Assembly (NCBI GenBank): GCA_964252595.1
Contig: CAXUNT010000012.1
Location: 4,537 to 68,536, forward strand
Direction of reading: 5' to 3'
Source of the DNA: an uncultured Armatimonadales bacterium
GTDB taxonomy: Bacteria; Armatimonadota; Armatimonadia; Armatimonadales; Capsulimonadaceae
Length of the DNA: 64,000 nucleotides
A model generated the notes under the pieces. It searched no databases. It was not told the origin of the DNA and was given only the letters and a program-made list of their open reading frames with translations. Made by a program: the position numbers and the translations under genes. Each line of letters begins with the position of its first letter. Positions within the stretch are counted from its first letter, which is position 1. Of the stretch, positions 22,000-57,952 are shown in pieces.

Positions 22000-23046
22000 C
22001 TATCTGGGATGAAGCGGCATACAGGTTGCCCCTGCCAGCATTTCCGTGGGAACCGCCCGCGCCGGCAGCGTTGCTTCCAGGTCGGTGATTTTTTGAAGCA
22101 GCAGGCCGACGGCTTCCATGCCCAGCCTCTCCATCACGTTGCTTACAGTCTGGAACGGCAGAAAATAACGGTCGTCAATCCGGTTGTGAAACAAGATGAC
22201 CGAAAGGTCCTGCGGAATTTGCAGGCCGAGAAGCAGAGCGGCATGCGTCACAGACATCGCTTCCGCCATTTCGTAGGCCAGAACCGCTGTCGGCCGGTCA
22301 TCCCGCGCGAGGAGCAGCCTCGCCGCTTCAATCCGCGCGTCCCTGCTTGCCTGCCCAGGCATCTGCCAGTTCTGCGGCAAAAGATAAACCCAGGGTGTCC
22401 TCCCTGCCGCCGCCATCACCTGCTCATAGCCGGTCTGGCGGTCAAACTTGCTGAAGTGACCATTTTCCGGCTCATCAGTGTCCACATAGGCAATCCGCTC
22501 ATGTCCGAGGGAGAGAAGAAACTCGGCGGCGATGCGCCCGCCCATCACTTCATCCGGGTGGATACAGTCAAACTCCTGCCGGACGTTCAGCGAGATCGCC
22601 GGAATACGCATCTGGTGTATTCGGTCAATAAAGGACTGAGACAACCCGGTATGCCGGTTGATCAAAACGCCGTCGGCAGACAGTTCACGCACCGTATGCG
22701 GCAGGTAGGTTTCGTCATCAATGACCATGTCTGGAACCTGCGTCAGCACCAAGTGCATATCCTTGTCCGAAATCGCCCGCGCGACCCCAAGCAGCAATTC
22801 TTCCGGCAGGTACTGGCCCAGCAGTGACTGGACAAGGGCAATGTTGCCGAAGCGGCCCGTCCGGATAGCCCGTGCGGAAGCGTTGGATCGGTAGCCCGTG
22901 TTTTGGGCAGCCTCCAGTACCCGCCGCTGGGTTTCGGGACGGATCCGCTGCTCGGTGGCTCGTCCATTCAAGACATGCGTGACGGTGGCTCGCGACAGAC
23001 CAAGCTGAGCCGCCAGTGTCGCGATTGTCGGATGCGGAGTATGCAA
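22000..23046 (-). CDS. LacI-family transcriptional regulator
   Basis: N-terminal HTH TIATLAAQLGLSRATVTHVLNG followed by a periplasmic-binding-protein-like sugar-binding fold. The start codon at 23046 is TTG and there is no in-frame ATG nearby. Confidence 0.88.
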   Translation of the reverse strand: MHTPHPTIATLAAQLGLSRATVTHVLNGRATEQRIRPETQRRVLEAAQNTGYRSNASARAIRTGRFGNIALVQSLLGQYLPEELLLGVARAISDKDMHLVLTQVPDMVIDDETYLPHTVRELSADGVLINRHTGLSQSFIDRIHQMRIPAISLNVRQEFDCIHPDEVMGGRIAAEFLLSLGHERIAYVDTDEPENGHFSKFDRQTGYEQVMAAAGRTPWVYLLPQNWQMPGQASRDARIEAARLLLARDDRPTAVLAYEMAEAMSVTHAALLLGLQIPQDLSVILFHNRIDDRYFLPFQTVSNVMERLGMEAVGLLLQKITDLEATLPARAVPTEMLAGATCMPLHPR

Positions 23047-39602: not shown

Positions 39603-39771
39603 ACGACCTCCTCGTCGTGAAACAAGCAAACCTAAGTGGTAAACGCGCGGCGTCATTGCCTTGCGCTTTTTAGTTTACTCTGTTTCGCCGTGTTTTTCAC
39701 ACATTATTTTTCACACGTTCTCTTTTATCGGCGAAAAACCGCTGTTTCAAGAGTGCGGCTTCAACCGACAC

Positions 39772-40869
39772 ATGGCTGAAACTGTTTACACGGAGCCGCA
39801 AAGCCCAGCGGGCCTGCTGCCGGCGCTGCTCGCGCTGCCGCGCGGGGCAACGATCCTCGTCCTGGGCGCCCCGGACTGCGGCAAGTCTACCTTTGTGCAG
39901 GCTGCCGTTTCGGCTCTCACCCAAGCGGGCCGCTCGGTCGCCGCTGTAGACTGCGACCTCGGCCAAAGCGAGATCGGCCCGCCGGGAACGATTGGCGCCG
40001 CCCGTGCTGAGGCCGGCGCAGAGTTTCGTTTCCTGCGCGACCTGCCGGTCGCGGCAAGCTATTTTGTCGGCGCGATTTCCCCGAACCGGCACACGCTGGA
40101 TGTGTGCGCCGGAGCGGTGCAGGTCACGCGGGCGATTAAAAAAAGCCGCCCGGATTTTGTTCTGGTCGACACCGACGGCTACGTTCAAGGCCGGGAAGCC
40201 CGGCAGTTCAAGCAGAAGCTGTGCGAGATGCTGCTGCCGCAGGTCGTCGTCGCCCTGTCGCGCGGCTCGGAGCTGGACCCGCTGTTGCTGGCTTTTAGGA
40301 ACCGTGACTTCCCGGACCTCTGGCGTGTTCCCACGGCTGCCGCCGCGCAGCGCAAGACCCCGGCAGCACGGGCTACCCGCCGGACAGCGCGGTTTTTGGC
40401 CGCTTTAGACGGCGCAGCGCCTCTCGTGTTTTCTATGGACACGGTCGCGCTGCTGGGAACCGCGCTTGGAACCGGCGAGCCGCAGCCGTTTCACTTGCTG
40501 CAATTTCTGAGCCGTTCACTGGGGCGGCCCGCACTTCATGCCGAGCGCACCGGCGGCCATTTGTCGGTGATCGTCAGCGGCGAGACGTGGGATACATCGG
40601 GCCTCGCCGCCGTGGAAACCTACTTCGGCGTCCGCACGGTTTCGGTGACGGCGGCGCAGAAGTTCGCCGGACTGCTGGTCGGTCTGGTGTCAAGCGGTGG
40701 TCAGCTTCTCGGCATCGGACGCATTGATCGGATAGACTTCGGGCGGCGGACGCTGACGGTGGTGAGCGCCTGCCGCAAGCCGGGCGCGGTCGCTCAGATT
40801 TGGTTCGGCAGCCTGCGCCTGCGGGCCGACGGCCGCGAAAACGGCGAAGTTAAGCCTGGCGAGATTTGA
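39772..40869 (+). CDS. Clp1/Grc3-type P-loop polynucleotide 5'-hydroxyl kinase homologue
   Basis: Walker A VLGAPDCGKSTF is followed by the Clp1-typical VAAVDCDLGQSEIGPPGTIG, then Walker B FVLVDTDGY. Confidence 0.65.
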   Translation: MAETVYTEPQSPAGLLPALLALPRGATILVLGAPDCGKSTFVQAAVSALTQAGRSVAAVDCDLGQSEIGPPGTIGAARAEAGAEFRFLRDLPVAASYFVGAISPNRHTLDVCAGAVQVTRAIKKSRPDFVLVDTDGYVQGREARQFKQKLCEMLLPQVVVALSRGSELDPLLLAFRNRDFPDLWRVPTAAAAQRKTPAARATRRTARFLAALDGAAPLVFSMDTVALLGTALGTGEPQPFHLLQFLSRSLGRPALHAERTGGHLSVIVSGETWDTSGLAAVETYFGVRTVSVTAAQKFAGLLVGLVSSGGQLLGIGRIDRIDFGRRTLTVVSACRKPGAVAQIWFGSLRLRADGRENGEVKPGEI

Positions 40870-44416: not shown

Positions 44417-44577
44417 AATTGGTGTTTTCTCCTGGCAAGGGTCGTGACGCGTTCGGTCACGAAAAGTTCGCCGTATTGCCGCTGAGTATGGAGCCTGAAT
44501 ATGAAAAACAAGTGAAGCGGCGGCAGGGCGGAGATTTTCGCAGGGGCTGCATTATCGGGTATAATAAATGCGTGTTA

Positions 44578-45687
44578 ATGCAGAATACTTTGATTGGGCT
44601 GACGACCGCCGAAATCCGGGCGACGCTGGCCGAAATGGATGTCCCCGCCTATCGCGGAACCCAGGTCGCGGAATGGCTGTACCGGCGGCTTGGGCCGGAA
44701 GCCGGCGGCGGATTTTGCGCCGAGTTTGCCGCCATGACCGATCTGCCCAGCAGCGTTCGTGAGGCGCTGGGGGAAACGTTCACCGGCTCGCCCCTGCGGC
44801 TGACCCAGCAGCAGAGCGACACGCGCGACGGGACGCTCAAAGCGCTCGCCGTGCTGACCGACGGCAGCCATCCGATAGAATGCGTCCTACTGCCCGACGC
44901 AAAGCGCGTATCGGTGTGTTTGTCCACGCAGGCCGGCTGCCCGATGGCCTGCGCGTTCTGCGCCACAGGGACGCAGGGGCTGACTCGCAATCTGACGACG
45001 GCTGAGATCGTGTCCCAGTTTTTGCTTTTGCAATCGCTGTCCGAGCGGCGCATCACGCACATTGTCTTGATGGGCATGGGCGAGCCGCTGCTGAACTACG
45101 ACGCGACGCTGAAGGCCATCCGCATTTTAAACGCCGAGTGCGGGGTCGCCATGCGGCATATCACCCTGTCCACGGTCGGCATCGTGCCGAACATTGACAA
45201 GCTGGCCGAAGAAAACTTGCAGCTTACGCTGGCCGTGTCGCTCCATGCCCCAAACGATGTTCTCCGCACCCGGCTGGTCCCTGTCAACAAAACCTACCCC
45301 CTGGAGCGCTTGATGGCCTCCTGCCGGAATTACGCCGCGCAGACTGGGCGGCGCTTGACGTTTGAATATGTGCTTCTTAGCGGCGTCAATGACGAGCCGC
45401 AGCACGCCCGCGACCTGGCCCAGCTTCTCAAGGGAACGTCAGCCGCCGTCAACATCATCCCGTACAACCCGACCTCCGTGGCCGAGCCGTTTGAGCGCCC
45501 AGACACAAGCCGCATTTTTGCGTTCCGGCGCATCCTGGAAGATGCGGGCGTGGTCGTCACCCAGCGCAAGGAGCGCGGGCGGCAGATCGCCGCCGCCTGC
45601 GGCCAGCTTGTCACGGAGAACGAGCGACGCCGCCCGGCCCGGCCTTTGATGGTTGTGTCCGAGCCTGTGCTGACGGGAGCCGGTTAA
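44578..45687 (+). CDS. rlmN: Radical-SAM 23S rRNA/tRNA adenine-C2 methyltransferase
   Basis: GCPMACAFCATG (CxxxCxxC), MGMGEPLLN, C-terminal AACGQL. ATG at 44578 with TATAAT at 44561-44566 upstream. Confidence 0.9.
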   Translation: MQNTLIGLTTAEIRATLAEMDVPAYRGTQVAEWLYRRLGPEAGGGFCAEFAAMTDLPSSVREALGETFTGSPLRLTQQQSDTRDGTLKALAVLTDGSHPIECVLLPDAKRVSVCLSTQAGCPMACAFCATGTQGLTRNLTTAEIVSQFLLLQSLSERRITHIVLMGMGEPLLNYDATLKAIRILNAECGVAMRHITLSTVGIVPNIDKLAEENLQLTLAVSLHAPNDVLRTRLVPVNKTYPLERLMASCRNYAAQTGRRLTFEYVLLSGVNDEPQHARDLAQLLKGTSAAVNIIPYNPTSVAEPFERPDTSRIFAFRRILEDAGVVVTQRKERGRQIAAACGQLVTENERRRPARPLMVVSEPVLTGAG

Positions 45688-45688
45688 G

Positions 45689-47440
45689 ATGTCTGGGGAG
45701 ACAGAAGCCCCAATTCCAGAAGCGGCTGCGACCGACGGGGCCGCGCCTAAGACAGCCCTTGCCGACGCCGAAGCTTGGCTGACCCGCATCAAGCCGGCCG
45801 CCGTGCTGGCGCTTCTCAAAGACCCCGACTACCGCGCCGCCGTCACCCCCGCCTTTGCCGGGTTCCAGCCCAGCTTCAAAAATTTCGCCTTGCCGCTGGT
45901 CCAGGGCCGCCTCGCCCAAACCGCTGTCAAAGACGACAAGTTCGCCGAAAAGCTCCAAGCGCTGGCGGAAACCGAGGCCAAGCCTGCGCCAAAGCCTGCC
46001 GCGCCGCCGCTTCCCCTGCCCCCGCCGGTCAAGCCCGATCCCGTCCCGGCTCTCAAAGCCGATCTGAAAGCCGAGCGCGACGCCCGGCGCAAAGAACGTG
46101 ACGCAGCCCGGCAGGAACTCGCGGCCGCGCAGGCCGCACGAGACGCCGACGCCAAAGCCCGCCTGCACTCCGAAGCCGAGCGTGACGAAGCCCGGCTCCT
46201 GGCGAAAAAGCAGGGGGAGCGGATCGCCCGCCTGGAGCGGCAGGCGGCGAAAGCCGCGCAAAGCGACGTGCTGCTGGGCAAAGCCCTGAACGAAGCCAAA
46301 GTTTCCCCTCCGCCGTCGCCGCGCTGGCCCGGCGCCGGACCAAACAAGCCGGAGCCGCCGGCAGTCAGTCCCGCCTGGCCCTCTGCGGTTCGGCACCTGC
46401 TGGACAAAGCCAAGTTCGACACGGCCCTTGCACTGGCCGAAGACGTTCTCAAAGGCGATCCCGATGATCCCGACGCCCTTCAAATCGCCCTGCGGGCCTC
46501 GGAAGGCCGCAAAGAACTGCGCCTGGCGTTCGGCCTCGCTCGCCGTCTGCTGGCCGAGCTGCTGCGCCGCGCTGATTACCCGGCGGCGTCTGAAACTCTG
46601 CTGACCCTGCTGCGGCTTGCGCCGCTCCCGGAGCAGGCGGAACCCGATGTCCGGCTTTTTCTTGCTGGCTTTCCGGCGTCGGACAATAATGCCGTCTCCG
46701 CCGCGCGGCTGATGCTAGCCCGCCTGCGCGGGGGCAGCCCTGCCGCGCATGACTGGCTGACGGAGTATGTTGCAGCCCGAACCCCGCTCGGCCCGGTTTT
46801 GATGCCGCCGCCGGGCGCTCTCGGTCCGGACGATCCCCTGCCTTTGACACTGCCCCTCGGACGCTCCATCACGGCCCGGAACCTTGCGGACGCGGTGGAT
46901 CGGGGGCAGACCGCGCTGGTAGATTCGGCTCGGTCGGCGCTGAATGCTCTGGAAGCCGCCGCCGCCGAAACTTACGCCCGCGTCTGGGCAGCGCTCGAAC
47001 AGGCCGCTTCCGGCGACCCTGCCCGCCTGCTGCCCTTGAAGCGGGTCCCGCGCGGCGCAGCGGTTGTGGACGGCAGCAATGTCGCCTGGTTTGATCAAGA
47101 ATCGCTCGCGCAGGGTCATCCGCGCCTGCGGGCGATTCTTGCAATTCGCCGGGTGCTGTGGACCAAAGGCTTTTTCCCGGTTGTGCTGTACGCCGACGCC
47201 AACCTGCCGTATTTTATCGACGACAAAGCGGCGCTGCGCCGGATGCGCGACCGGCAGGAACTGACCTTGGTAGATGCCGGAACCGCCGCCGACATTGTGT
47301 TGCTGCGGGTTGCCAAGCAAATGAACGCGCCGCTGATCACCAATGACAAGATGGAAGACTGGGACCCGGAACGCACTGTCCGTAAAGTCCGTTATACGGT
47401 TTCCGCGGGCGGCGAAGCCCTTCTTCTGTCGGAAGTTTAA
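45689..47440 (+). CDS. Large protein with a Pro/Ala/charged coiled-coil middle and a C-terminal Zc3h12a-like NYN (PIN-like) ribonuclease domain
   Basis: The C-terminal AAVVDGSNVAW...FPVVLYADANL...TNDKMEDWD pattern matches an NYN/Zc3h12a fold. The start is 1 nt after the rlmN stop. Confidence 0.6.
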   Translation: MSGETEAPIPEAAATDGAAPKTALADAEAWLTRIKPAAVLALLKDPDYRAAVTPAFAGFQPSFKNFALPLVQGRLAQTAVKDDKFAEKLQALAETEAKPAPKPAAPPLPLPPPVKPDPVPALKADLKAERDARRKERDAARQELAAAQAARDADAKARLHSEAERDEARLLAKKQGERIARLERQAAKAAQSDVLLGKALNEAKVSPPPSPRWPGAGPNKPEPPAVSPAWPSAVRHLLDKAKFDTALALAEDVLKGDPDDPDALQIALRASEGRKELRLAFGLARRLLAELLRRADYPAASETLLTLLRLAPLPEQAEPDVRLFLAGFPASDNNAVSAARLMLARLRGGSPAAHDWLTEYVAARTPLGPVLMPPPGALGPDDPLPLTLPLGRSITARNLADAVDRGQTALVDSARSALNALEAAAAETYARVWAALEQAASGDPARLLPLKRVPRGAAVVDGSNVAWFDQESLAQGHPRLRAILAIRRVLWTKGFFPVVLYADANLPYFIDDKAALRRMRDRQELTLVDAGTAADIVLLRVAKQMNAPLITNDKMEDWDPERTVRKVRYTVSAGGEALLLSEV

Positions 47441-47441
47441 C

Positions 47442-48434
47442 ATGACTTTAGAAGAACAATTCTCGCGGCTGATCCAGATTTTGCAGCTTTTAGACCGGGA
47501 GCCGTTTCACTGGGACGCCGCCGCGCTGGAAGAAAAGTTTGACGTGTCCCGCGCCACGATTGAGCGGGACATCGCGGTTCTGCGGCAGTGGGGCCAAGTC
47601 AAGCGCAAAGACGGCAAGTTCGGCCTAGCGGAAATGAAGTTCCTGCCGACCTCGTTCACGCCGCCCGAAGCCCTCGCCCTGCGGCTCGCCGGGACCAGCT
47701 TCGCGTCCCAAGCCGGGTCGGTGTACAAAGACTCGCTCACGTCCGCGCTCAAAAAAATTGACCTCGTCCTGCCGCGCCGGATCGCCGCTGAAGTGAAAAA
47801 AGCCGGGGAGCGTGTCTCGGTGGGCTTGCCGGTCGTGCGCGATTTTTCCGCCGAAGTCTACCAGAACTTAGAGTCGGCGATTGTCCGGCATCACCCCGTA
47901 GACATTACCTACTTGTCCCGGACGCGCCCGGAGCCGACCAAGCGGCGCGTGGATCCCTATGGCCTGACTTATAAAATTGGCGCGTGGTATCTGGTCGGCT
48001 ACTGCCACTTGCGTCAGGGCATACGCACCTTCGGCCTGGACCGAATCAAGTGGATGCGGGTGCGTGAAGACGCCCGGTTCTCTTATCCCGCCGACTTTGA
48101 CCTCGCGGAGTGGCTGGCAAAGGGCTGGCAGTTGCAAGCCGGCGGCGAGCCGACCGAAGTGGTCGTGCGCTTTGACGCGGAAGTGGCAAGCTGGATCGCG
48201 AACAGCCACTGGCACGCGACCCAGCGGATTGAAAAGCAGCCTGACGGCGGCCTTTTGTTCCGGGTGACCGTGCATGGGTATGAGGAGATGCTTTACTGGG
48301 TGCTGTCGTTCGGCGCACAGGCCGAAGTGCTGGAACCCCTGCCCCTGCGTGCCGCGGTCGCAGAGTCTGCCCGGAAGATGGCAGAGCGTTATGAACGCGT
48401 TCTTTCTAACCTCGCTCAGCCCACCGCAGCATAG
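47442..48434 (+). CDS. HTH-WYL-WCX transcriptional regulator (PafBC/BrxR/CapW-like architecture)
   Basis: N-terminal wHTH (FDVSRATIERDIAVLRQWG) and a WYL core (YKIGAWYLVGYCHLRQGIRTFGLDRI). The start is 1 nt after the upstream stop. Confidence 0.8.
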   Translation: MTLEEQFSRLIQILQLLDREPFHWDAAALEEKFDVSRATIERDIAVLRQWGQVKRKDGKFGLAEMKFLPTSFTPPEALALRLAGTSFASQAGSVYKDSLTSALKKIDLVLPRRIAAEVKKAGERVSVGLPVVRDFSAEVYQNLESAIVRHHPVDITYLSRTRPEPTKRRVDPYGLTYKIGAWYLVGYCHLRQGIRTFGLDRIKWMRVREDARFSYPADFDLAEWLAKGWQLQAGGEPTEVVVRFDAEVASWIANSHWHATQRIEKQPDGGLLFRVTVHGYEEMLYWVLSFGAQAEVLEPLPLRAAVAESARKMAERYERVLSNLAQPTAA

Positions 48435-48496
48435 CGAGAAAAGTTGTCTCTCTGTAGGCCGCCTCGCGTTCTCCGCCGAGACCCCTGTTTCCCTTC

Positions 48497-48529
48497 CTTA
48501 ACATTGCTTTAACATCGCTCTCGTGTAAT
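48497..48529 (+). promoter_or_regulatory. Pho-box-like promoter module, copy A (orphan)
   Basis: CTTAACAT (48497) and TTTAACAT (48508) lie 11 bp apart. TGTAAT (48524-48529) follows 9 nt after the proximal TTAACA. Confidence 0.5.
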
Positions 48530-48755
48530 AACCAGAGTGCACTCTGATTAAGCGGCTCCGGGGACTGCCGTTCGGCATCAGAAGTACTGTCAATCTCATT
48601 CAGATAGCTGCGTCGCGATTGCCCCCACTGTGCTTGTGTCGGGCTGGTCCATGCGAGGCGTTTCTTTCTCGGCGAGCAGGTCAAAGGGCGGGAGACACAA
48701 CAAACGATACCTCAAAAATAGGTACAATCGCGATCATAAAGGGAGATATGACATC

Positions 48756-49511
48756 ATGAAAGCAGAGACCACAGCGCCCGCTGATGCAAACGCCGCGACG
48801 CCCGCCAAGATGCTCCCGTTTGCCCGCGCCCTGGCTCATGACGTGCAGGCGGCGCTACAGCCTCGCTTGCGTCTTCCTGTTGCCCCGCAAACGTTGCTGT
48901 CGGCAGCCGATGCCTCGCACCAGTTCTACGAGCAGACCTGGCGGCATGTCCAAAGCTTAAACGTTGTCCCCCACGCCTGCGCTGCCGGCTGCGCTTATTG
49001 CTGCCACTTGACTGTTGAAGCATCCGCCCCGGAAGTCTTTTTGATCGCCGCTTTTCTCGCGCATCTGCCTGCCGAACGCCTCGAGGCCGTGAAAGCGCGT
49101 GTCCGCCAAACGGCCACCGCTGTGCGCGGCCTGTCGCCGGACGCGCGTGTCCGTGCCGCCGTGCCATGCGCCCTGCTGGAAGAGGGCCGGTGCAGCGTCT
49201 ACGGTGTCCGGCCCCTCGGCTGCCGGTCGTGGAACAGCCGCGACGCCCGCGCCTGCGCTCAGGTGATGGAGCAGGGCGGGGGAGACTTGCGCCCGGTGCA
49301 GGACCAGCGCCCCGGCGGGATCGAGTCGGGGATACGCGCAGGCTTCGCGGCGGCCCTGCAAGAAGCGGGCCTGCCGGAAGACGACACGCGCCGCTGCGAG
49401 CTGAATACGGCGCTTCAGATCGCACTGGAAGACCCCTCGGCGCTTTCCGGCTGGCTCGGCGGAACCGACACGCTTGCCCCCGCGCGAGCCGCAGTGAAAT
49501 ACGCGAAATAG
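48756..49511 (+). CDS. YkgJ/UPF0153-type cysteine-cluster (CxxCxxCC) zinc/iron-chelating domain protein
   Basis: CAAGCAYCCH ... PCALLEEGRCSVYGVRPLGCRSW. ATG at 48756 with an AAGGGAGA RBS. Confidence 0.7.
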   Translation: MKAETTAPADANAATPAKMLPFARALAHDVQAALQPRLRLPVAPQTLLSAADASHQFYEQTWRHVQSLNVVPHACAAGCAYCCHLTVEASAPEVFLIAAFLAHLPAERLEAVKARVRQTATAVRGLSPDARVRAAVPCALLEEGRCSVYGVRPLGCRSWNSRDARACAQVMEQGGGDLRPVQDQRPGGIESGIRAGFAAALQEAGLPEDDTRRCELNTALQIALEDPSALSGWLGGTDTLAPARAAVKYAK

Positions 49512-49539: not shown

Positions 49540-49578
49540 GTAAGCCGCCTCGCGTTCCCCACCAAAACATCGTTTTCC

Positions 49579-49611
49579 CTTAATGCTCTCTTAACATTGC
49601 CCTTGTATAAT
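49579..49611 (+). promoter_or_regulatory. Pho-box-like promoter module, copy B
   Basis: CTTAATGC (49579) and CTTAACAT (49590) lie 11 bp apart. TATAAT (49606-49611) follows 9 nt after the proximal TTAACA. It sits about 45 nt upstream of the PEP-CTERM gene. Confidence 0.55.
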
Positions 49612-49654: not shown

Positions 49655-50278
49655 ATGATGACGTCTCAACTTATCTCGCTCCGGCTGGCCTGCGGCGCAG
49701 CCGTCGCCGCTGCCGGCTTGCTGTCCGCCCCCGGCGCGTTTGCACAGTCCCCAACGCCGACTTCCTACTTCTTCCAAGTCGAGAACAATACGTTGTCCGG
49801 TGGCGATCCTGTCTTTTCCGTGATCGACAACCTGACTTTCAGCAATTTGCAGATCAACGAGACCTTCACCGGCGGCTTTACCCAGACGATCCAGCTTGGC
49901 AGCCTCGATACGGCTACGTTTGACACTTTCAGCAATACGTTTTCAACTTCCAGCCCGCTGACATCGGCAGTTCTCACAGGGAACATCGGCTCCGGCCCCG
50001 CCCAAAATGTGAACACGGAAACGACGATTGGCGGCCCGATCACGCCGCAGTATGTTTCTTCCACGTTCTCTGCTTCCTTGTTCGGCCCCGCGCAAACTGG
50101 AACCGCATTGGGTACCTTCAGCCTTTTAGACGGCAATGACAACGTAGTTAATTCGGTCACTATCCTTGCGCCGGCCGCCGTGCCGGAAGCGTCCACCACC
50201 GTCTCGCTTGGCCTTCTGCTGGCCCTCGGCCTCGGTGCTGTGGCTGTGTCCCGTCGCCGCGCCGCTTCTGCAAAATAA
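49655..50278 (+). CDS. Small secreted PEP-CTERM-anchored protein (paralogue of 54075-54761)
   Basis: AAGGAG RBS and a signal peptide. C-terminal PAAVPEASTTVSLGLLLALGLGAVAVSRRRAAS has the PEP-CTERM layout: VPEAS motif, TM helix, Arg cluster. Confidence 0.85.
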   Translation: MMTSQLISLRLACGAAVAAAGLLSAPGAFAQSPTPTSYFFQVENNTLSGGDPVFSVIDNLTFSNLQINETFTGGFTQTIQLGSLDTATFDTFSNTFSTSSPLTSAVLTGNIGSGPAQNVNTETTIGGPITPQYVSSTFSASLFGPAQTGTALGTFSLLDGNDNVVNSVTILAPAAVPEASTTVSLGLLLALGLGAVAVSRRRAASAK

Positions 50279-50309: not shown

Positions 50310-53300
50310 ATGAAACATAGCCAAATCAAGGGCAGCGCCGCCGCACTCGGCGCGGCCTTTTTGACCCTCCTCGGCGGGAGCGCTGCACTCGCGCAGGTCA
50401 ACGGCACTAACTGGGGCACCGTCACTGCTCCCGTCTATGGCACGTCTGAAAAGCAGCGGGCCGACGGCACCGCAACCACCGCTTACAGCAGCGCTGAGCT
50501 TTTAGCAGGGCCGAACAAGTCCGGCGAATTGGTCCTGCCGCCCGGCGCGACCCCGACCTACTTTGACGGCGTCCTGCCGAACGGCAAAATCGTTGCCCCC
50601 GCCGGCATTGTCGCCCAAATCGGAATGCACCCGCTCGGCAGCGCTTTAACCCCTGACGGCCAGTACCTTGTCCTTTCCTGCGATGACGAGCGCAACATCA
50701 CCGGCGGCCTGTCTACTCTGCCTTCGCCCACTTCGGCCGGCGGCTCGGTGAACCTGCTCGGCGGCTACTCCGTGACGGTCCTGCGGACTTCAGACATGAC
50801 CGTCGCCGCTCAGACCGCCGTCGGCCCGCTGTTTGTCGGCCTGCAAATCGTGCCGAGCGGCACCGGCTACACGATCTATGCTTCCGGCGGCGGCGACCAG
50901 AACGTCAAAGTGCTGACGTTCACTCCGCCGGCGGGAACGAGCGCCGGCACCTTGACTTCCGGGACGGCGATCAGAATCAACCCGATCACGCCGAACGCCA
51001 CCCCGACTAATTTCACCCAGGTTCCCCTCAAGACCACGAACCCGGCGACGGGCGTTACTACCTACAGCACCCCGACGACCTTCAATGGCGGCGACTTTCC
51101 TGAAAACTCCGGCAGCAGCGGCGTTCCCGGCGGCGGCGGCTTCGGCAGCACGGGCGGCGGCACAGCAGCGTTCCTGACGGCCAACCAGATTTCGTTCCCC
51201 GCCGGCTCGGCGCTTTCCCCCGACGGCAAGTATCTGTATGTCGCCTGCAACGGCGACAACAGTCTGGCCGTGATCGCGACGGCGGCCAACACCACGGCGA
51301 CGCCCAACACAGTTATTAAGCAGATTCCGGTCGGCTTCCTGCCCTACGGCGTCACGGTCAGCCGCGACGGCACCAAAGTCTTGGTTTCCAACTGGGGCGT
51401 TGAGCCGTACACATTTATTGGCGCACCGACGCAGGATGCTTCCGGCAACATCACTGCACTGGCGTCGGTCACGCCGGGTCAGGATACAAGCGGCCTGTTC
51501 TTTGTCCCTGTGACCAGCATGTCCGGCGGCAACCCGAAAACTTCTTCGGTGTCGGTCATCAGCGTTCCCGGTGCAAACCCGGCGAATGCGTCCGTCGTCG
51601 GCGCGGTCTACGAAGGCCAGCCGGGCGGCCCGGATGACCGTATTCTGGTCGGCGAAACCCATCCGTCCGCTATGGCGATTGTCCGGCTCGGCACGCAGGA
51701 AGTGGAATACGTTACCAAGTCCAACTCCGACTCGCTCGGCCTGATCTTGGTTGCCAACAACCGCAAGCTGCCCGACTTCAACTTGTCCCCGCTGAACCTG
51801 AACCTGCCGGACGGTCACCTTGTCCACGGCTCGTACCCGAATGCCCTGGCGGTCTCGCCCGACAACAAGCGGCTGTATGTCGCCGAAGCGGGCCTGGATT
51901 CTGTGGCTGTGCTGGACGTGTCTACCCCGACTTCGCCGAAGCTGCTGGGCCGCATCCCGACAGGCTGGTATCCTTCCGCCTTGTCGGTGAGCGCCGACGG
52001 CCAGACCCTGTACGTCGTCAACGATAAAGGCGTCGCGGAGGACCTGAACCCGAAGACGGATTTTGCCGGCAACCCGACTGCGTCCGGGATCGAGTCGTTC
52101 TCCAACTCAAACTCGATGTTCGGGACGGTGCAGAAAATCAATTTGGCGTCTTTGCCGCTGGACAACACGACAGCACTGAAAAACGACTTCGCGGTCCAGA
52201 ACGCGGCCAATCTTGACACCAGCATTGTCCCAATTGGCGGCGGGGCGTCCGGCAAGATCAAGCACGTCATCTTTATCCTGCATGAAAACAAGACGTTTGA
52301 CTCCATGCTCGGCAACCAGCCGCATTTCGGCGTTTTTGCCAACCAAGATTACAACTTGGCTTCCGGCGCGACTTCTTTTGACCAGGAATATGCCGTCACC
52401 GGCTACACGGGCTTTACGTCCATCGCCCTGAACACGCAGGCGCTGGCCGACACGTTCGCCACCGGCGTCAACTACTACTCGGACGCGGAAGAAAGCGACG
52501 GCGGACATCAATTTTCGGCTTCCGGCACGGCGTCGGACTTCACCGAAAAAACGCTGCTGGTCAAAGGCGGGCGCGGTTTGCTCTCGAACAAGAACATGGA
52601 GCCGGAAGATTACCCGGAAGGCGGCTACATCTTCAACAACGCCGCCCGGAACAACGTCTCGTTCAAGGACTACGGCGCTTTGATCCGCGTCACCGGCACT
52701 GACAACGGCTATGCGAACCCCGCCAAGACCATTGACCCGCCGAGCGGCTTGGCTGGCGTTCCCGTCGCCCCCGAAAGCAGCCCCGTTCTGAACGGCATGA
52801 ACACAGTCGGCCAGCAGAACCCGCCGAACGGCACTGCCACAACGCCCAATACGGCGGTCGCGACCCCCGCCGCCACAAACCAGCCGGCGGAAGTAAACGG
52901 CATCTACAACAGTGCCGCAAACCCCACGGGCAGCGATGTCACTTCACTGACTCAGGGCCTGGGCCAGTCCTACTTCCTGAAGAACCCGATCCTGGCAATT
53001 TTGGGCGAAAGCAACGCCAGCGGCGAGCCGCATTTGGATAAAAACTATCCTGGCTACAACTTCGGCATTTCCGATCAGCGCCGCGCCTTAGAGTTCAACA
53101 AGGACTTTGACCGCATGGCGGCTGCCGGAACGCTGCCGACGTACATCTACTTGTATCAGCCGAACGACCACTCCGGCAATCCGGCGGCGACCTCAAACAT
53201 CGCCATCACCGGCGGCAGCCCTTCCGGCGCGGAGCTGATCGCCGACGGCGACACGGCTTTGGGTATGGTCGTCAAGCACATCATGCAGAGCCAGGCGTAC

Positions 53301-53900
53301 TACAACAGCGCAGACGGCACCGGCTCGGCGATCTTCTTCACCTATGACGATGCCCAGTCGGGCCGCGACCACCTGGACCCACACCGGACGCCGATGATCG
53401 TCATCAGCCCCTATGCCAAGCCCGGCTTCCTGGCGACGCGCCACTACTCAACGGCCTCCATCGTCAAGACCGAAGAACTGCTGATGGGCCTGCCGCCGAA
53501 CAACTACGGCGACCTGCTGGCAACCGATCTGCGCGATATGTTCCAGTCCACCTACAACGGTATCCACCTCAGCGCCGACGGCCTGACCCTCTTGGGGCCG
53601 AACCAAATGTCGCTTGCCAAGCTGCACGCGAAAAGCACTTATGTGGCAACCGCACCGGGCCGCAAAGTGTGGACGTTGTCGCAGAAGCTGGATTCGTCCT
53701 CCCCGGACCAAGATTCCTACCGCCTCAGCATGGTCACCCTGCTGTCCATGCAGGCCGACACGCTGTACCATCAAGCCGCGAAGAAGCACACGCTGAACAC
53801 GGCAGCCTACAAGTCCGAGCAGGCGCGTGTCTACCAGGCTGCGATCAAAGTCGTCAACGGCCCGAAAGTCGGCGGCGATGACGATAAAGACGGCGGCTAG
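50310..53900 (+). CDS. Secreted fusion protein: N-terminal YVTN/YncE-like beta-propeller repeats plus a C-terminal phosphoesterase-family (phospholipase C / AcpA acid-phosphatase type) domain
   Basis: Propeller-like units (SALSPDGKYLYVACNGDNSLAVI, VTVSRDGTKVLVSN, LAVSPDNKRLYVAEAGLDSVAVLD, LSVSADGQTLYVVN). Phosphoesterase start block IKHVIFILHENKTFDSMLG and late blocks FTYDDAQSGRDHLDPHRTPMIVISPY. ATG at 50310 with a GAGGAA RBS. Confidence 0.8.
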   Translation: MKHSQIKGSAAALGAAFLTLLGGSAALAQVNGTNWGTVTAPVYGTSEKQRADGTATTAYSSAELLAGPNKSGELVLPPGATPTYFDGVLPNGKIVAPAGIVAQIGMHPLGSALTPDGQYLVLSCDDERNITGGLSTLPSPTSAGGSVNLLGGYSVTVLRTSDMTVAAQTAVGPLFVGLQIVPSGTGYTIYASGGGDQNVKVLTFTPPAGTSAGTLTSGTAIRINPITPNATPTNFTQVPLKTTNPATGVTTYSTPTTFNGGDFPENSGSSGVPGGGGFGSTGGGTAAFLTANQISFPAGSALSPDGKYLYVACNGDNSLAVIATAANTTATPNTVIKQIPVGFLPYGVTVSRDGTKVLVSNWGVEPYTFIGAPTQDASGNITALASVTPGQDTSGLFFVPVTSMSGGNPKTSSVSVISVPGANPANASVVGAVYEGQPGGPDDRILVGETHPSAMAIVRLGTQEVEYVTKSNSDSLGLILVANNRKLPDFNLSPLNLNLPDGHLVHGSYPNALAVSPDNKRLYVAEAGLDSVAVLDVSTPTSPKLLGRIPTGWYPSALSVSADGQTLYVVNDKGVAEDLNPKTDFAGNPTASGIESFSNSNSMFGTVQKINLASLPLDNTTALKNDFAVQNAANLDTSIVPIGGGASGKIKHVIFILHENKTFDSMLGNQPHFGVFANQDYNLASGATSFDQEYAVTGYTGFTSIALNTQALADTFATGVNYYSDAEESDGGHQFSASGTASDFTEKTLLVKGGRGLLSNKNMEPEDYPEGGYIFNNAARNNVSFKDYGALIRVTGTDNGYANPAKTIDPPSGLAGVPVAPESSPVLNGMNTVGQQNPPNGTATTPNTAVATPAATNQPAEVNGIYNSAANPTGSDVTSLTQGLGQSYFLKNPILAILGESNASGEPHLDKNYPGYNFGISDQRRALEFNKDFDRMAAAGTLPTYIYLYQPNDHSGNPAATSNIAITGGSPSGAELIADGDTALGMVVKHIMQSQAYYNSADGTGSAIFFTYDDAQSGRDHLDPHRTPMIVISPYAKPGFLATRHYSTASIVKTEELLMGLPPNNYGDLLATDLRDMFQSTYNGIHLSADGLTLLGPNQMSLAKLHAKSTYVATAPGRKVWTLSQKLDSSSPDQDSYRLSMVTLLSMQADTLYHQAAKKHTLNTAAYKSEQARVYQAAIKVVNGPKVGGDDDKDGG

Positions 53901-53923: not shown

Positions 53924-53952
53924 GCCCCGGTTCTGATGAGCCGGGGCTTTTT
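53924..53952 (+). terminator. Rho-independent terminator
   Basis: GCCCCGG-(10 nt)-CCGGGGC followed by TTTTT. Confidence 0.65.
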
Positions 53953-53978: not shown

Positions 53979-54033
53979 CTTAATGTTAACTTAATGTCTT
54001 CTTAACACTGGTTTAACATTGCCCCCGTATAAT
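53979..54033 (+). promoter_or_regulatory. Pho-box-like promoter module, copy C: four direct repeats phased at 11 bp, plus TATAAT
   Basis: CTTAATGT (53979), CTTAATGT (53990), CTTAACAC (54001), TTTAACAT (54012). TATAAT at 54028-54033. Confidence 0.6.
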
Positions 54034-54074
54034 GATCAGGTTGCACCATCCACAAGCATTGAGGAGACACATCC

Positions 54075-54761
54075 ATGAACACCACCCACTTCGCCTTTCG
54101 CTCATTTTTCGGTTTTGCCGTCGCCGGAGCCGCGCTCTGTTCGGCGGGCGGCGCGTCCGCTCAGACCGCAACTCCCTTTTATGCGTTTGTCGTCAGCAAC
54201 CTGACCGAATCCAACGGCAGCCTCGCTTACCCGGTGTATGACTCGGTGACGTTCGCCTCCCCGGAGATCAATGAAGTCTTTGCCGACGGATATACCAATT
54301 CTTTTGCCATCGGCGACGCGAACAACAGTGTGCAGGCAATGGACAAGCAGGCCAGCGCCTTGATGACGTCAGCGCCCGGCACCGGGTTTTCCGATCCGGT
54401 ACATGGAGCGCTGACCTCGGCTACCCTGACCGGCAGCCTTGCTTTTCCGAACTTCGGGCCGGCGAACACTCTTTCCCTTTCTGTTCTGACAGATGCCGCC
54501 GGGGACCAGACCCAGCAGAGCGTTTTCACCCCGTTTTCCGCCTCTTTGTTCGGTCCCGCCTCATCGGGCATCGCCGTCGGCACGTTCAGCCTGATGAACC
54601 TCGGCAGCAGCCAGGGCACGACGGTGGACATTGATGCGACGCCGGTTCCCGCCGCTGTTCCCGAAGCCTCCACCAACGTATCTCTCGGCCTGCTCCTGAT
54701 GCTCGGCCTCGGCGGCACGGTCATCGCCCGCCGCCGGCGCACGGCAAGCGCGGCAAGCTGA
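54075..54761 (+). CDS. Small secreted PEP-CTERM-anchored protein (paralogue of 49655-50278)
   Basis: GAGGAG RBS and a signal peptide. Shared blocks FSASLFGPA..G.A.GTFSL and PAAVPEASTNVSLGLLLMLGLGGTVIARRRRTAS. Confidence 0.85.
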   Translation: MNTTHFAFRSFFGFAVAGAALCSAGGASAQTATPFYAFVVSNLTESNGSLAYPVYDSVTFASPEINEVFADGYTNSFAIGDANNSVQAMDKQASALMTSAPGTGFSDPVHGALTSATLTGSLAFPNFGPANTLSLSVLTDAAGDQTQQSVFTPFSASLFGPASSGIAVGTFSLMNLGSSQGTTVDIDATPVPAAVPEASTNVSLGLLLMLGLGGTVIARRRRTASAAS

Positions 54762-54817: not shown

Positions 54818-57721
54818 ATGACTACCCTGAGCTTTCTGAAACATCATGCCCTCTTCTGCGCCGCTGCCGCCGCCGCAGTCGCCCTGCTCGGCTCGGCCGC
54901 GACGGCGCAGACCCCGGCGCCGCCGTCCGCCGTGAACCCGCTTGTGACCGGCAAAAGCATCACGCTTCCGCCGCTCGGCTCGACCACCAACGTCGGCAGC
55001 CTGCCCATGAACATGATCGTCACGCCCGACGGCAAGTTCGCGATCTCCACCGACATGGGCTTTCGCGAGTCCCTGCATGTCCTCAGCACTACGACCGGCA
55101 AAGACGCCGGCCCAGCCCTTGTCTTCGGCCCGGATGCCGGCAATACGACGTTCGGCCCGAACGGATTGTATTACGGCCTTGCCGCTCAGTCCAATCCCGA
55201 CGGCAGCTCGACCATTTATGCCTCCGAAGGCACCGTCACTGCGCCGGCAAAATCCGGTCTTCCGAACACCGGTGCGGTGGCCGTGGTCAACGTCAGCCCG
55301 GCGGGAACGCTCACGCTAGCCAAGACGATCACCCTGAAAAATCCCGGCGACTTCCCAGCAGGCGTCGCGCTTGACAGCCGCGGCTACCTGTACGTCGCCA
55401 TCAACGAGAACTATGGCGCAGGCTCCATCGCCAACATCACAACGCCGGGCAGCCTCGCGATCATCAATACCAGCACCGGCGCGGAAGTAGGACGCTACTC
55501 GTTTGCCGAAGCCGCCGGCAACCTCACGCTCGGTGGAGGCAACACCGCGTCGTTTACGCCGTCAAACTTCCCGCTGTCGGTCGCGGCTCTGAGCGACGGC
55601 TCCAAAGTCTATGTGTCTTCCCAGCGCGACAACGCCGTTTATGTCCTCAACTGCGCCAGTCCAGCGGCCCCGACCCAGAGCGCGGCGCTCGCGACCGGGC
55701 AGCATCCGATCTCCCTGCTGCTCAACAAAGCGCAGACCAAGCTGTATGTCGCCAATGCCCATAGCGAAACCGTCTCAGTGGTGAATACCACGAACAACAC
55801 GGTTGCCGCCACAGTCCTGCTCCAGCCGACCGGTACGCGCGGCCTATCCGGCGTCACCCCCACCGGTCTCGGCTTGACCCCGGACGAGAGCCGGCTGTAT
55901 GTGTCCCTCGGCGACATGAACGCCATCGGCGTCGTGGACACGGCCTCTAATGCGCTCATCGGCTACATCCCGGCCGGCTGGTATCCGACCGCCGTGGTCG
56001 CGTCTCCCGTCAAACCTGTGATTTTAGTCGCCAACGCCAAAGGCACGCTGACCCGCTACCCGAACCCCAGCTATCAGCAGTTCTCTTTCGCCAACCAATA
56101 TGACCTGAACATCATTGAAGGCAACGTGGAAACGATCCGCGTTCCCGGCGCATCCCAGCTTGCATCGTACACGCAGATGACGCTGGCGAACAACAAAATT
56201 GCGGCCATCGCCAATCCGGCGCCCAGCCCGCTGGCGGGCATTAATCTCGCCGCGCAGAACGGCATCAAACACGTTTTCTACATCATCAAGGAAAACCGGA
56301 CCTACGATCAGGTGCTGGGCGATCTGCCCCAGGGCAACGGCGACTCCAGCCTGGTGCTGTTTGGGAAAAACGTCACGCCCAACCTGCACGCGCTGGCGTC
56401 CCGGTTTGTCCTGCTGGACAACTTCTACGACTGCGCGGAAGCGTCCGGCGACGGCTGGCCCTGGTCCACCCAGGGGCAGGCGTCCGAGTACGTCATCAAG
56501 AACCTGCCGTACAACTACAGCGGCCGCGGGCGCAATTACGACTTTGAGGGCGCGAACAACAATTATCCCGTCGGCGGCTTTCCGGCCACCGATCCTTACG
56601 GCCAGCCGCTGGTGCCGTCTTCGCCGTTCCGCGACCCCGCCACCGGCGCCGCCCCGGCCATCCATGACGTGTCCGTTGCACCCGGCGGCCATATCTGGGA
56701 CGATGTCCAGGAGAACGTCAATCTCGCCGGCACCGGCCTGACGACAAAGTACCGCAACTACGGCTTCTTTGCGCTCTTTGGCGACAACGTCAACACGCCC
56801 GACAACTACCCGACTGATCTCGGTCTGCAGCCCGCCGGACATGACGGCGGCGGCGTGACGGACATTGACTTCCGCGAGTACGATGCCACTTACCCGGACA
56901 GCGAGGGACCGGCCGCCGTCAGCAGCTTGTACCCCAGAGCCGCCTATGGGCATTACAACGCGCCCAGCCGCTACACAGAATGGAACCGCGAGTTCCAGCA
57001 GATGCTGGCCGCCAAACCCGACGGCAGCACAGTCCCGGCGTTTGAGACCGTGCGATTCATGCACGACCACACGCAGGGCGTCTCGGTCGTCACGGACTCG
57101 ACAGGCAACTACATCCGGTCGAACCACCTGCCGACGGCGGAAGTCGCCGACAACGACTATGGCATCGGCCAGTTCGTGCAGGCGATCAGCAGCAGCCCGA
57201 TCTGGAACTCGTCGGCAATTTTTGTCATTGAAGACGACGCGCAGGACGGCCCGGACCATGTGGACTGTCACCGGTCCACGTGCTATGTCATCAGCCCGTT
57301 CATCAAGAAATCATCGGTAGACCACACGTTCTACAACACCGACAGCGTCTTGAAGACGATGGAGCTTCTCTTGAACATCCCGCCGATGAACCAGTACGAT
57401 GCCACGGCCAACCCAATCCTGGACTTCGACACTACGGCCAGCAACACCGGCGTCTACACGGCTACCCAGCCTGCCGCCTCCATCCTGAGCGGCCTTGCTC
57501 CTGCTCCGACCTCCAGCAGCCGTGCGTTGCTGCCGCTGGAAACACTCTGCGCCACAATGGACTTTGTCCACCCCGACAGCGCTCCGGCCGCCGTGCTGAA
57601 CGAAGTCATCTGGAAAAGCGTCAAAGGCATGCACTCCAAGATGCCTGCGATCCGCCATGCCACTAGCCTGCTCGGCAAGACGCCGGCGGCTCACACTGCC
57701 CGCAAAGACAGCGACGAATAA
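54818..57721 (+). CDS. Secreted beta-propeller plus phosphoesterase-family fusion protein (paralogue of 50310-53900)
   Basis: AAGGAG RBS and a signal peptide. Propeller units (VTPDGKFAIS, LSDGSKVYVSSQRDNAVYVLN, LNKAQTKLYVANAHSETVSVVN, LTPDESRLYVSLGDMNAIGVVD). IKHVFYIIKENRTYDQVLGDL and FVIEDDAQDGPDHVDCHRSTCYVISPF. Confidence 0.8.
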   Translation: MTTLSFLKHHALFCAAAAAAVALLGSAATAQTPAPPSAVNPLVTGKSITLPPLGSTTNVGSLPMNMIVTPDGKFAISTDMGFRESLHVLSTTTGKDAGPALVFGPDAGNTTFGPNGLYYGLAAQSNPDGSSTIYASEGTVTAPAKSGLPNTGAVAVVNVSPAGTLTLAKTITLKNPGDFPAGVALDSRGYLYVAINENYGAGSIANITTPGSLAIINTSTGAEVGRYSFAEAAGNLTLGGGNTASFTPSNFPLSVAALSDGSKVYVSSQRDNAVYVLNCASPAAPTQSAALATGQHPISLLLNKAQTKLYVANAHSETVSVVNTTNNTVAATVLLQPTGTRGLSGVTPTGLGLTPDESRLYVSLGDMNAIGVVDTASNALIGYIPAGWYPTAVVASPVKPVILVANAKGTLTRYPNPSYQQFSFANQYDLNIIEGNVETIRVPGASQLASYTQMTLANNKIAAIANPAPSPLAGINLAAQNGIKHVFYIIKENRTYDQVLGDLPQGNGDSSLVLFGKNVTPNLHALASRFVLLDNFYDCAEASGDGWPWSTQGQASEYVIKNLPYNYSGRGRNYDFEGANNNYPVGGFPATDPYGQPLVPSSPFRDPATGAAPAIHDVSVAPGGHIWDDVQENVNLAGTGLTTKYRNYGFFALFGDNVNTPDNYPTDLGLQPAGHDGGGVTDIDFREYDATYPDSEGPAAVSSLYPRAAYGHYNAPSRYTEWNREFQQMLAAKPDGSTVPAFETVRFMHDHTQGVSVVTDSTGNYIRSNHLPTAEVADNDYGIGQFVQAISSSPIWNSSAIFVIEDDAQDGPDHVDCHRSTCYVISPFIKKSSVDHTFYNTDSVLKTMELLLNIPPMNQYDATANPILDFDTTASNTGVYTATQPAASILSGLAPAPTSSSRALLPLETLCATMDFVHPDSAPAAVLNEVIWKSVKGMHSKMPAIRHATSLLGKTPAAHTARKDSDE

Positions 57722-57780: not shown

Positions 57781-57814
57781 CCCCGGTTCCAAGCAGTGGA
57801 ACCGGGGCTTTTTT
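57781..57814 (+). terminator. Rho-independent terminator
   Basis: CCCCGGTTCC-AAGCAGT-GGAACCGGGG followed by CTTTTTT. Confidence 0.8.
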
Positions 57815-57952
57815 CGGCTGATGAAATACAAACAAATTACTTTGTGAAATAAAGCAACAAAGGCGGGTATAATCCCAGCAGAAATATCCGCAGAGGTATG
57901 ATTTGTGATGCCCCCCTCCCCCGACCGAATCAACAAGAAAGAGACGCCCCGT

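Follow-up and report, generated by a model that had tools for sequence, protein, structure and literature searches.

The window analysed here, 64,000 nt of DNA from an uncultured Armatimonadales bacterium, contains four direct repeat units arranged with an 11 bp period (53979-54019, forward strand) and followed by a TATAAT hexamer (54028-54033, forward strand); this array is likely to be a PhoB/SphR-type, activator-dependent phosphate-starvation promoter for the two-gene module downstream of it. The element is of a textbook operator kind and of the cyanobacterial sequence type. Its occurrence in the Armatimonadota is new as far as the literature was searched, no paper having been found that links this phylum to a Pho box or a Pho regulon. 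A preliminary description of the same DNA had read the array as a phosphate-starvation promoter in a lineage whose Pho box had yet to be defined. The functional part of that reading is supported by the conservation of the register among relatives, by the agreement with the core and period of the SphR box and by associations with phosphate genes; the part concerning the lineage stands with regard to published descriptions from Armatimonadota, but not with regard to the type of box, which is the cyanobacterial one rather than a new one.

The array, its promoter core and their conservation

On direct reading, the units are CTTAATGT at 53979-53986 and again at 53990-53997, CTTAACAC at 54001-54008 and TTTAACAT at 54012-54019, the start-to-start distance of these four CTTAAY units, which are putative response-regulator sites, being 11 bp throughout; Tandem Repeats Finder likewise assigned the array a period of 11 nt. 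A Pho box is expected to have at least two head-to-tail direct repeats at 11 bp, as are found at 53979-54019, and a proximal unit standing in place of the -35 hexamer about 10 bp from the -10, as is found in the arrangement TTAAC-N10-TATAAT. The TTAACA of the last unit (54013-54018) ends 9 nt before the TATAAT. No sigma-70 -35/-10 pair was detected at this promoter by a consensus scan, and ACACTG, the hexamer found on direct reading at 17 nt upstream of the -10, agrees with TTGACA at none of its six positions. The preliminary description had already reported the four repeats and their phasing, the 9 nt gap to a perfect TATAAT and the placement of the array at the position of a -35 element; the first was confirmed by reading and by shuffling, the second by reading, and the third is borne out by the spacing and by the lack of a detectable -35.

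Upstream, an intrinsic terminator on the forward strand (53924-53947), consisting of a 10 bp stem with eight GC pairs and a subsequent TTTTT, closes the preceding operon, such that the array is part of a separate promoter. Downstream, a ribosome-binding site read as GAGGAG (54061-54066, forward strand) lies 8 nt 5' of the ATG of the first gene. An additional, out-of-phase GTTAAC/CTTAAC is present at 53985-53990, inside the first spacer and 6 nt after the first unit; this copy is common to the window and the orthologous locus L001 (6125-6130), and is not found in L002 or L020.

Intergenic DNA in the window is more AT-rich (GC 0.42) than the window as a whole (GC around 60%), which would favour regarding the array as a chance AT-rich intergenic patch or a non-functional short tandem repeat. 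Against this, three phased YTTAAY units did not occur in any of 100 dinucleotide-preserving shuffles of the window with one mismatch tolerated, and the full 55 nt pattern of four units, N10 and TATAAT, matched once in the window, was absent from all 100 shuffles with up to three mismatches allowed. Among relatives, the orthologous loci L001-L005 (57-77% protein identity) all have four CTTAAY units in the 11 bp register ahead of the cluster. Over the orthologous promoters compared, for which the encoded proteins are 57-88% identical, the spacers have diverged while the register is kept, as it is in remoter homologues. A gapless alignment of 14 distinct four-unit arrays, drawn from Armatimonadota loci (Capsulimonadaceae and Armatimonadales) and from further contigs with homologous downstream genes, shows all four TTAA cores to be invariant, the flanking pyrimidines to be nearly so and the spacers to be variable, with the TTAAC-N10-TANNNT spacing retained in 13 of the 14. 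These conservation data refute an origin by chance or as an idle tandem repeat, to which we attach a negligible probability. To judge by the 14 promoters, which keep four TTAA cores in register while their spacers have diverged, the four-unit array is a real cis-element. Across 317 kb of related DNA, TTAAY-N6-TTAAY pairs are nearly all intergenic and aimed at the downstream gene.

The phosphoesterase cluster of the window

The first gene behind the array (54075-54761, forward strand) is an ORF encoding a secreted protein of 228 aa that has no Pfam or NCBIfam match. Its tail, comprising PAAVPEAST, a hydrophobic stretch (LGLLLMLGLGG) and RRRR, looks PEP-CTERM-like by eye; the NCBIfam PEP-CTERM model TIGR02595 does not match it at E<=1e-3. 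The second gene (54818-57721, forward strand) encodes a secreted protein of 967 aa, which carries YVTN-type beta-propeller repeats and matches the AcpA/PLC-type phosphoesterase profile PF04185 with an E value of 3.3e-12 and 46.7 bits (cut-off 23), the match covering the C-terminal third of the profile only (226-355). By this match the product is assigned to the PF04185 phosphoesterase family. The nearest PDB entries by sequence are 1l0q, a surface-layer propeller, and, weakly, 2d1g, the Francisella AcpA, and a IKHVFYIIKENRTYD motif was noticed by eye near the N-terminus; more than 2000 relatives of this protein are present in public data. Hence, where the preliminary description had named a PEP-CTERM protein and a phosphoesterase as the downstream products, the second assignment is upheld by the profile match, whereas the first has the appearance of the tail on its side and the family model against it. 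A terminator hairpin (57781-57807, forward strand) closes the operon, and dxs, further downstream, has a sigma-70-like promoter of its own (57844-57873).

Pairs of the form YTTAAY-N5-YTTAAY occur five times in the window, with 0.03 expected. Three of these lie within the four-unit array, the others being at 48497 and 49579, and tolerating one mismatch disclosed no further pairs in the window. Both of the latter, found by pattern scan on the forward strand, belong to two-unit promoters: one, at 49579-49611, consists of CTTAATGC at 49579, CTTAACAT at 49590 and TATAAT at 49606-49611, and the other, P1, at 48497-48529, consists of CTTAACAT at 48497, TTTAACAT at 48508 and TGTAAT at 48524-48529. They share one design, in which two units and TTAACAYNG-N5-G are followed by TGTAAT or TATAAT, so that, counting the four-unit array, three promoters of a single type lie in the cluster at 48.4-57.8 kb. 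The promoter at 49579 is kept in L001 (at 1717), L002 (at 4895), L009, L020, L030 and L104.

The gene downstream of P1, at 48756-49511 on the forward strand, encodes a CxxCxxCC protein (PF03692), ATG 48756 being the likely start in preference to the mechanical ORF start at 48630; an orthologue occupies the same place in L002. Behind the promoter at 49579 stands a second copy of the two-gene module, recognised through sequence comparison and Pfam. It comprises a secreted protein of 207 aa (49655-50278, forward strand), which is 43% identical to the paralogous 228-aa protein and has the C-terminal tail in common with it, and a beta-propeller and PF04185 phosphoesterase of about 1196 aa (50310-53900, forward strand; likely start ATG 50310, mechanical ORF start 50166), which is a paralogue of the 967-aa protein.

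There is also a conserved box, GTAAGCCGCCTCGCG, at 49540-49554 on the forward strand, which precedes the two-unit promoter at 49579 by 40 nt, and a second copy, GTAGGCCGCCTCGCG, at 48454-48468, 44 nt upstream of P1. In the general form GTA(A/G)GCCGCCTCGCG, it is likewise found at L001:1678-1692, L009:7573-7587, L030:1645-1659 (reverse strand) and L104:1899-1913, in each case before the first unit of a two-unit promoter, at a distance of 40 nt (44 nt for P1), and it was found neither at four-unit promoters nor in any other fetched locus. A second regulator may bind at this box.

Adjoining the cluster is a block encoding an RlmN-like radical SAM protein, an NYN/Zc3h12a-type RNase and a WYL-WCX HTH regulator, syntenic between the window (44419-48434) and L002 (12949-16936). 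The regulator gene (47343-48434) is directly upstream of P1 and is beside the cluster in L002 too, and its product could be imagined to control all three promoters in the manner of PafBC, through an element upstream of the -10 instead of a -35. The mycobacterial PafBC -26 element has the form TGTCGGTG-N8-TANNNT, with a comparable distance to the -10. The gene is, however, not beside the cluster in L001, L003, L004 or L005, where the arrays are kept; boxes of the identical type occur at PhoX and PiT operons in other genomes (see below); and winged-helix response regulators typically have sites of the present kind, with four head-to-tail repeats at 11 bp. A four-fold TTAAC repeat is moreover unlike the TGTCGGTG consensus. 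Given this lack of both synteny and motif resemblance, control by the WYL protein was rejected as highly improbable.

By Pfam, no pst, phoU or phoBR genes are present in the 64 kb window, the remaining genes of which include glycoside hydrolases, DUF1559/N-methyl proteins and regulators. Densely clustered at 41-23046 are GH8, GH67, GH10, GH3, GH127, GH95, GH39, GH43, arabinofuranosidases and a GDSL esterase; a LacI-family regulator is encoded at 22000-23046, and the whole has the appearance of a locus for xylan/arabinan utilisation. The product of 39661-40869 is a CLP1-type P-loop protein.

Occurrence of the motif at phosphate genes

The Armatimonadota contigs compared comprised Capsulimonadaceae, Armatimonadales, Armatimonadaceae and Chthonomonadaceae MAGs, and orthologues at 75-88% identity would place the window in this group. 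A collection of genomes was scanned with the family core TTAAY-N5-YTTAACAYNG-N5-GTNTAAT, which fits all seven promoters known when it was designed. Of the 42 loci matched, about 18 are in Armatimonadota, most of them phosphoesterase clusters; the other 24 or so, scattered over unrelated genomes, were set aside as chance matches. Besides the phosphoesterase clusters, the core heads an operon of PhoU_div (DUF47) and PHO4/PiT genes in two genomes (L019 and L033; Pfam E values of 3.8e-23 and 3.1e-97) and lies upstream of a TAT-signal PhoX alkaline phosphatase gene (L035; Pfam E value of 1e-80). In Armatimonadota it also heads a DUF1559 pilin-like gene, a PEP-CTERM protein gene and one further operon. 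Four PhoU_div-PiT loci added after the scan (L170-L173), representing three distinct promoter sequences, all have an upstream TTAAT-N6-TTAAC, so that a TTAAT/C-N6-TTAAC pair is found in six of six such loci (five distinct promoter sequences), among them that of the cultured type species Capsulimonas corticalis (AP025739.1). PiT transporters are Pho-activated in some bacteria, though not in all. The motif is therefore found at phosphate-acquisition genes of the same lineage, namely phoX in L035 and the PhoU_div-PiT operons of L019, L033 and L170-L173, and, together with the pstS genes on metagenome contigs described below, these represent the enrichment at phosphate genes that the preliminary description had looked to as support for its reading.

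In Capsulimonadaceae assemblies with Mb-sized contigs, this strict core scan returned only phosphoesterase clusters and one PhoU_div-PiT operon, and no pstS or phoBR promoters. No pstS-like gene was found by tblastn in any fetched Armatimonadota locus, and no response-regulator gene adjoins the phosphoesterase clusters. At one Armatimonadetes PhoX promoter (L168:4950-5015) the CTTAAY box is absent; this promoter has a different tandem repeat of about 21 nt, AACCGGAAGTGAACGATACT / AACCGGAAGTAACCGATACT, so that the phylum may contain more than one type of operator. When the Armatimonadaceae PhoX was used as the query, the homologues returned were mainly Acidobacteria and Chloroflexi proteins, and were consequently not informative as to lineage.

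Phased CTTAAY boxes were also observed at genes for DUF1559/N-methyl (type IV pilin-like) proteins, at L003:16972 (reverse strand), L045:4002 (reverse), L140:270 (forward) and L121:1484 (reverse); in L140, the DUF1559 gene behind the boxes is followed by propeller-phosphoesterase homologues. Such pilin-like proteins may be members of the same regulon. Separately, in the Chthonomonadaceae MAG locus L039, boxes at 6330 (reverse), 6341 (reverse) and 6439 (forward) point in both directions from a single intergenic region, at the gene of a 268-aa PEP-CTERM protein, which matches TIGR02595 weakly, and, on the other strand, at that of a 450-aa secreted protein.

A pattern of three units and TTAAC-N10-TANNNT was found in at least 120 loci on metagenome contigs. 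Among the matches listed, the first downstream ORFs (n = 87) include 11 PstS-type PBP_like_2, seven SBP_bac_1, four BPD_transp_1, three Phosphoesterase, two Porin_O_P and one PhoX, and one other downstream ORF resembles the phosphonate-binding protein PhnS. Searching with tblastn detected a pstS-like gene in 20 of the 120 loci listed (725 kb), 16 of which are downstream of the array and on its strand, compared with an estimate of less than one in 725 kb of random DNA; these pstS-bearing contigs may or may not come from Armatimonadota. In 13 of the loci listed there is a full-length OmpR-family regulator, 41-48% identical in seven cases to E. coli PhoB. The most complete gene row is that of L160, where a four-unit array heads genes for a porin, pstS, pstCA, likely pstB, phoB, likely phoR and DUF47, of which pstS, phoB and DUF47 were called by BLAST and the remainder from ORF size and order. 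The DUF47 protein of this contig is 41-49% identical to Armatimonadota ones, and its LysS fragment is 49% identical. Two high-GC loci (L064 and L114) have four-unit arrays before homologues of the propeller phosphoesterase that are 30-32% identical to that of the window.

Three-unit arrays were also seen in lower-GC loci. In L085, L108, L132 and L151 these precede genes for FG-GAP/UnbV_ASPIC proteins of about 560 aa, and three of these four loci have a full-length OmpR-family regulator gene; in L079, L082, L087 and L163 they precede a family of 439-aa proteins that start MNE..KAWVVSADMGYGHQRAVYPL.

Direct repeats with a period of about 10-11 bp are a feature shared throughout the OmpR family (PMC4415409), and the array might instead be the operator of another OmpR/PhoB-family regulator that senses not phosphate but, for instance, envelope stress or, as with cyanobacterial RpaB, light or redox stress, in which case the phosphoesterase-like proteins would serve another role. 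Genes with boxes and no obvious phosphate role, namely those for the DUF1559 proteins, the CxxCxxCC protein and, in L014, a 119-aa protein and an AP_endonuc_2 protein, would fit such a regulator, as would the fact that none is encoded adjacent to the clusters. OmpR-family paralogues can, in addition, recognise similar half-sites. Nevertheless, genes for PhoX, PhoU_div-PiT, pstS, pstC/A, phosphate porins and phoB-like regulators accompany this architecture, and the core is identical to that of the SphR box. The HLR1 motif of RpaB is of the TTACA type with a 10 bp period, unlike TTAAC at 11 bp. A regulator of this other kind consequently appears rather unlikely.

Relation to known Pho boxes and proposed regulation

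Of the systems compared, the SphR box of Synechocystis sp. PCC 6803, which consists of at least three tandem 8 bp repeats with the consensus CTTAACCT and a 3 bp linker (PMC1906773), agrees with the array in its 11 bp period, in its place upstream of phosphate-scavenging genes and in its core, CTTAAC/T corresponding to the first six bases of CTTAACCT. That this box is a repeat with 11 bp spacing had been stated in the preliminary description, and is confirmed by the published consensus and linker. The two differ at positions 7-8, which are mostly AT, AC or GT here and CT in the SphR consensus; in host, Armatimonadota as opposed to Cyanobacteria; and in cargo, a lineage-specific propeller-phosphoesterase module here and pst/phoA there.

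The E. coli Pho box is found 10 bp upstream of the -10 (PMC1906773), as the preliminary description had also stated. It resembles the present array in having 11 bp head-to-tail units in place of the -35 about 10 bp from the -10, but its core is CTGTCAT where CTTAAC is found here, and its 7 bp core is separated from the -10 by 10 nt rather than 9 nt. Strong E. coli Pho promoters, such as that of pstS, have two boxes, equivalent to four units. For Bacillus subtilis, Liu and Hulett in 1998 (cited in PMC2275107) reportedly described PhoP binding to TT(A/T/C)ACA-like repeats, four in number and 11 bp apart, that lie upstream of the -10. In the present array the two units nearest the promoter are TTAACA, which accords with this consensus, whereas the distal units are TTAATG and TTAATC, and the host is a member of the Armatimonadota rather than the Firmicutes. 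Pho boxes are generally composed of 11 nt direct repeat units (DRus), and the PhoP operators of Streptomyces coelicolor vary in DRu number, simple operators having two and complex ones more (PMC4415409, PMC2275107). This variation is similar to that between the two- and four-unit promoters of the window, although the S. coelicolor core is GTTCACC.

By analogy with the paradigms of E. coli, Bacillus and Synechocystis, from which the identity of the regulator, its signal and the direction of regulation are taken, the array would constitute a class-II, activator-dependent sigma-70 promoter under the control of a Pho box whose sequence is of the type known from cyanobacteria (SphR) and Bacillus (PhoP). 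When phosphate becomes limiting, two dimers of a phosphorylated PhoB-family regulator would bind head-to-tail to the four CTTAAY units, which, being one helical turn apart, would present one face of the DNA. As a -35 is missing from this promoter, the protomer on the proximal unit, in the place of that element, would contact sigma region 4 and thereby recruit RNA polymerase. Transcription would then proceed through the two-gene module to end at the hairpin at 57781-57807, and the secreted beta-propeller/AcpA-like phosphoesterase would free phosphate from organic esters. The promoters at 48497 and 49579, as simpler operators, would be weaker, driving the CxxCxxCC gene and the neighbouring paralogous module, with the four-unit promoter stronger or more cooperative. 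Since these two-unit promoters are of the same design, the cluster at 48.4-57.8 kb is proposed to be a single Pho-regulated island.

A wider proposal joins several such elements, and we regard it in its entirety as having slightly less than an even chance of being correct: that Armatimonadota possess a hitherto undescribed Pho regulon, the main cargo of which is the duplicated, lineage-specific two-gene module together with DUF1559 proteins; that part of it is co-controlled through GTAAGCCGCCTCGCG; and that a CTTAAC/TTAACA code for PhoB is shared across the Terrabacteria and beyond. If this is true, the Terrabacteria sharing the code would be the Cyanobacteria, Firmicutes and Armatimonadota, and the main cargo of the regulon would be a surface-anchored PEP-CTERM-like protein and a giant propeller/AcpA-like phosphoesterase, as opposed to classical phosphatases. 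The understanding of Pho regulation itself is unchanged; the cyanobacterial CTTAAC type of Pho box would be in use well beyond the cyanobacteria. For the Armatimonadota, a phylum widespread in soil and the phyllosphere with few cultured members, a position-specific motif is now ready for the prediction of phosphate-starvation regulons, and phosphate scavenging would provide a physiological context for more than 2000 uncharacterised secreted propeller-phosphoesterase proteins and their small partners.
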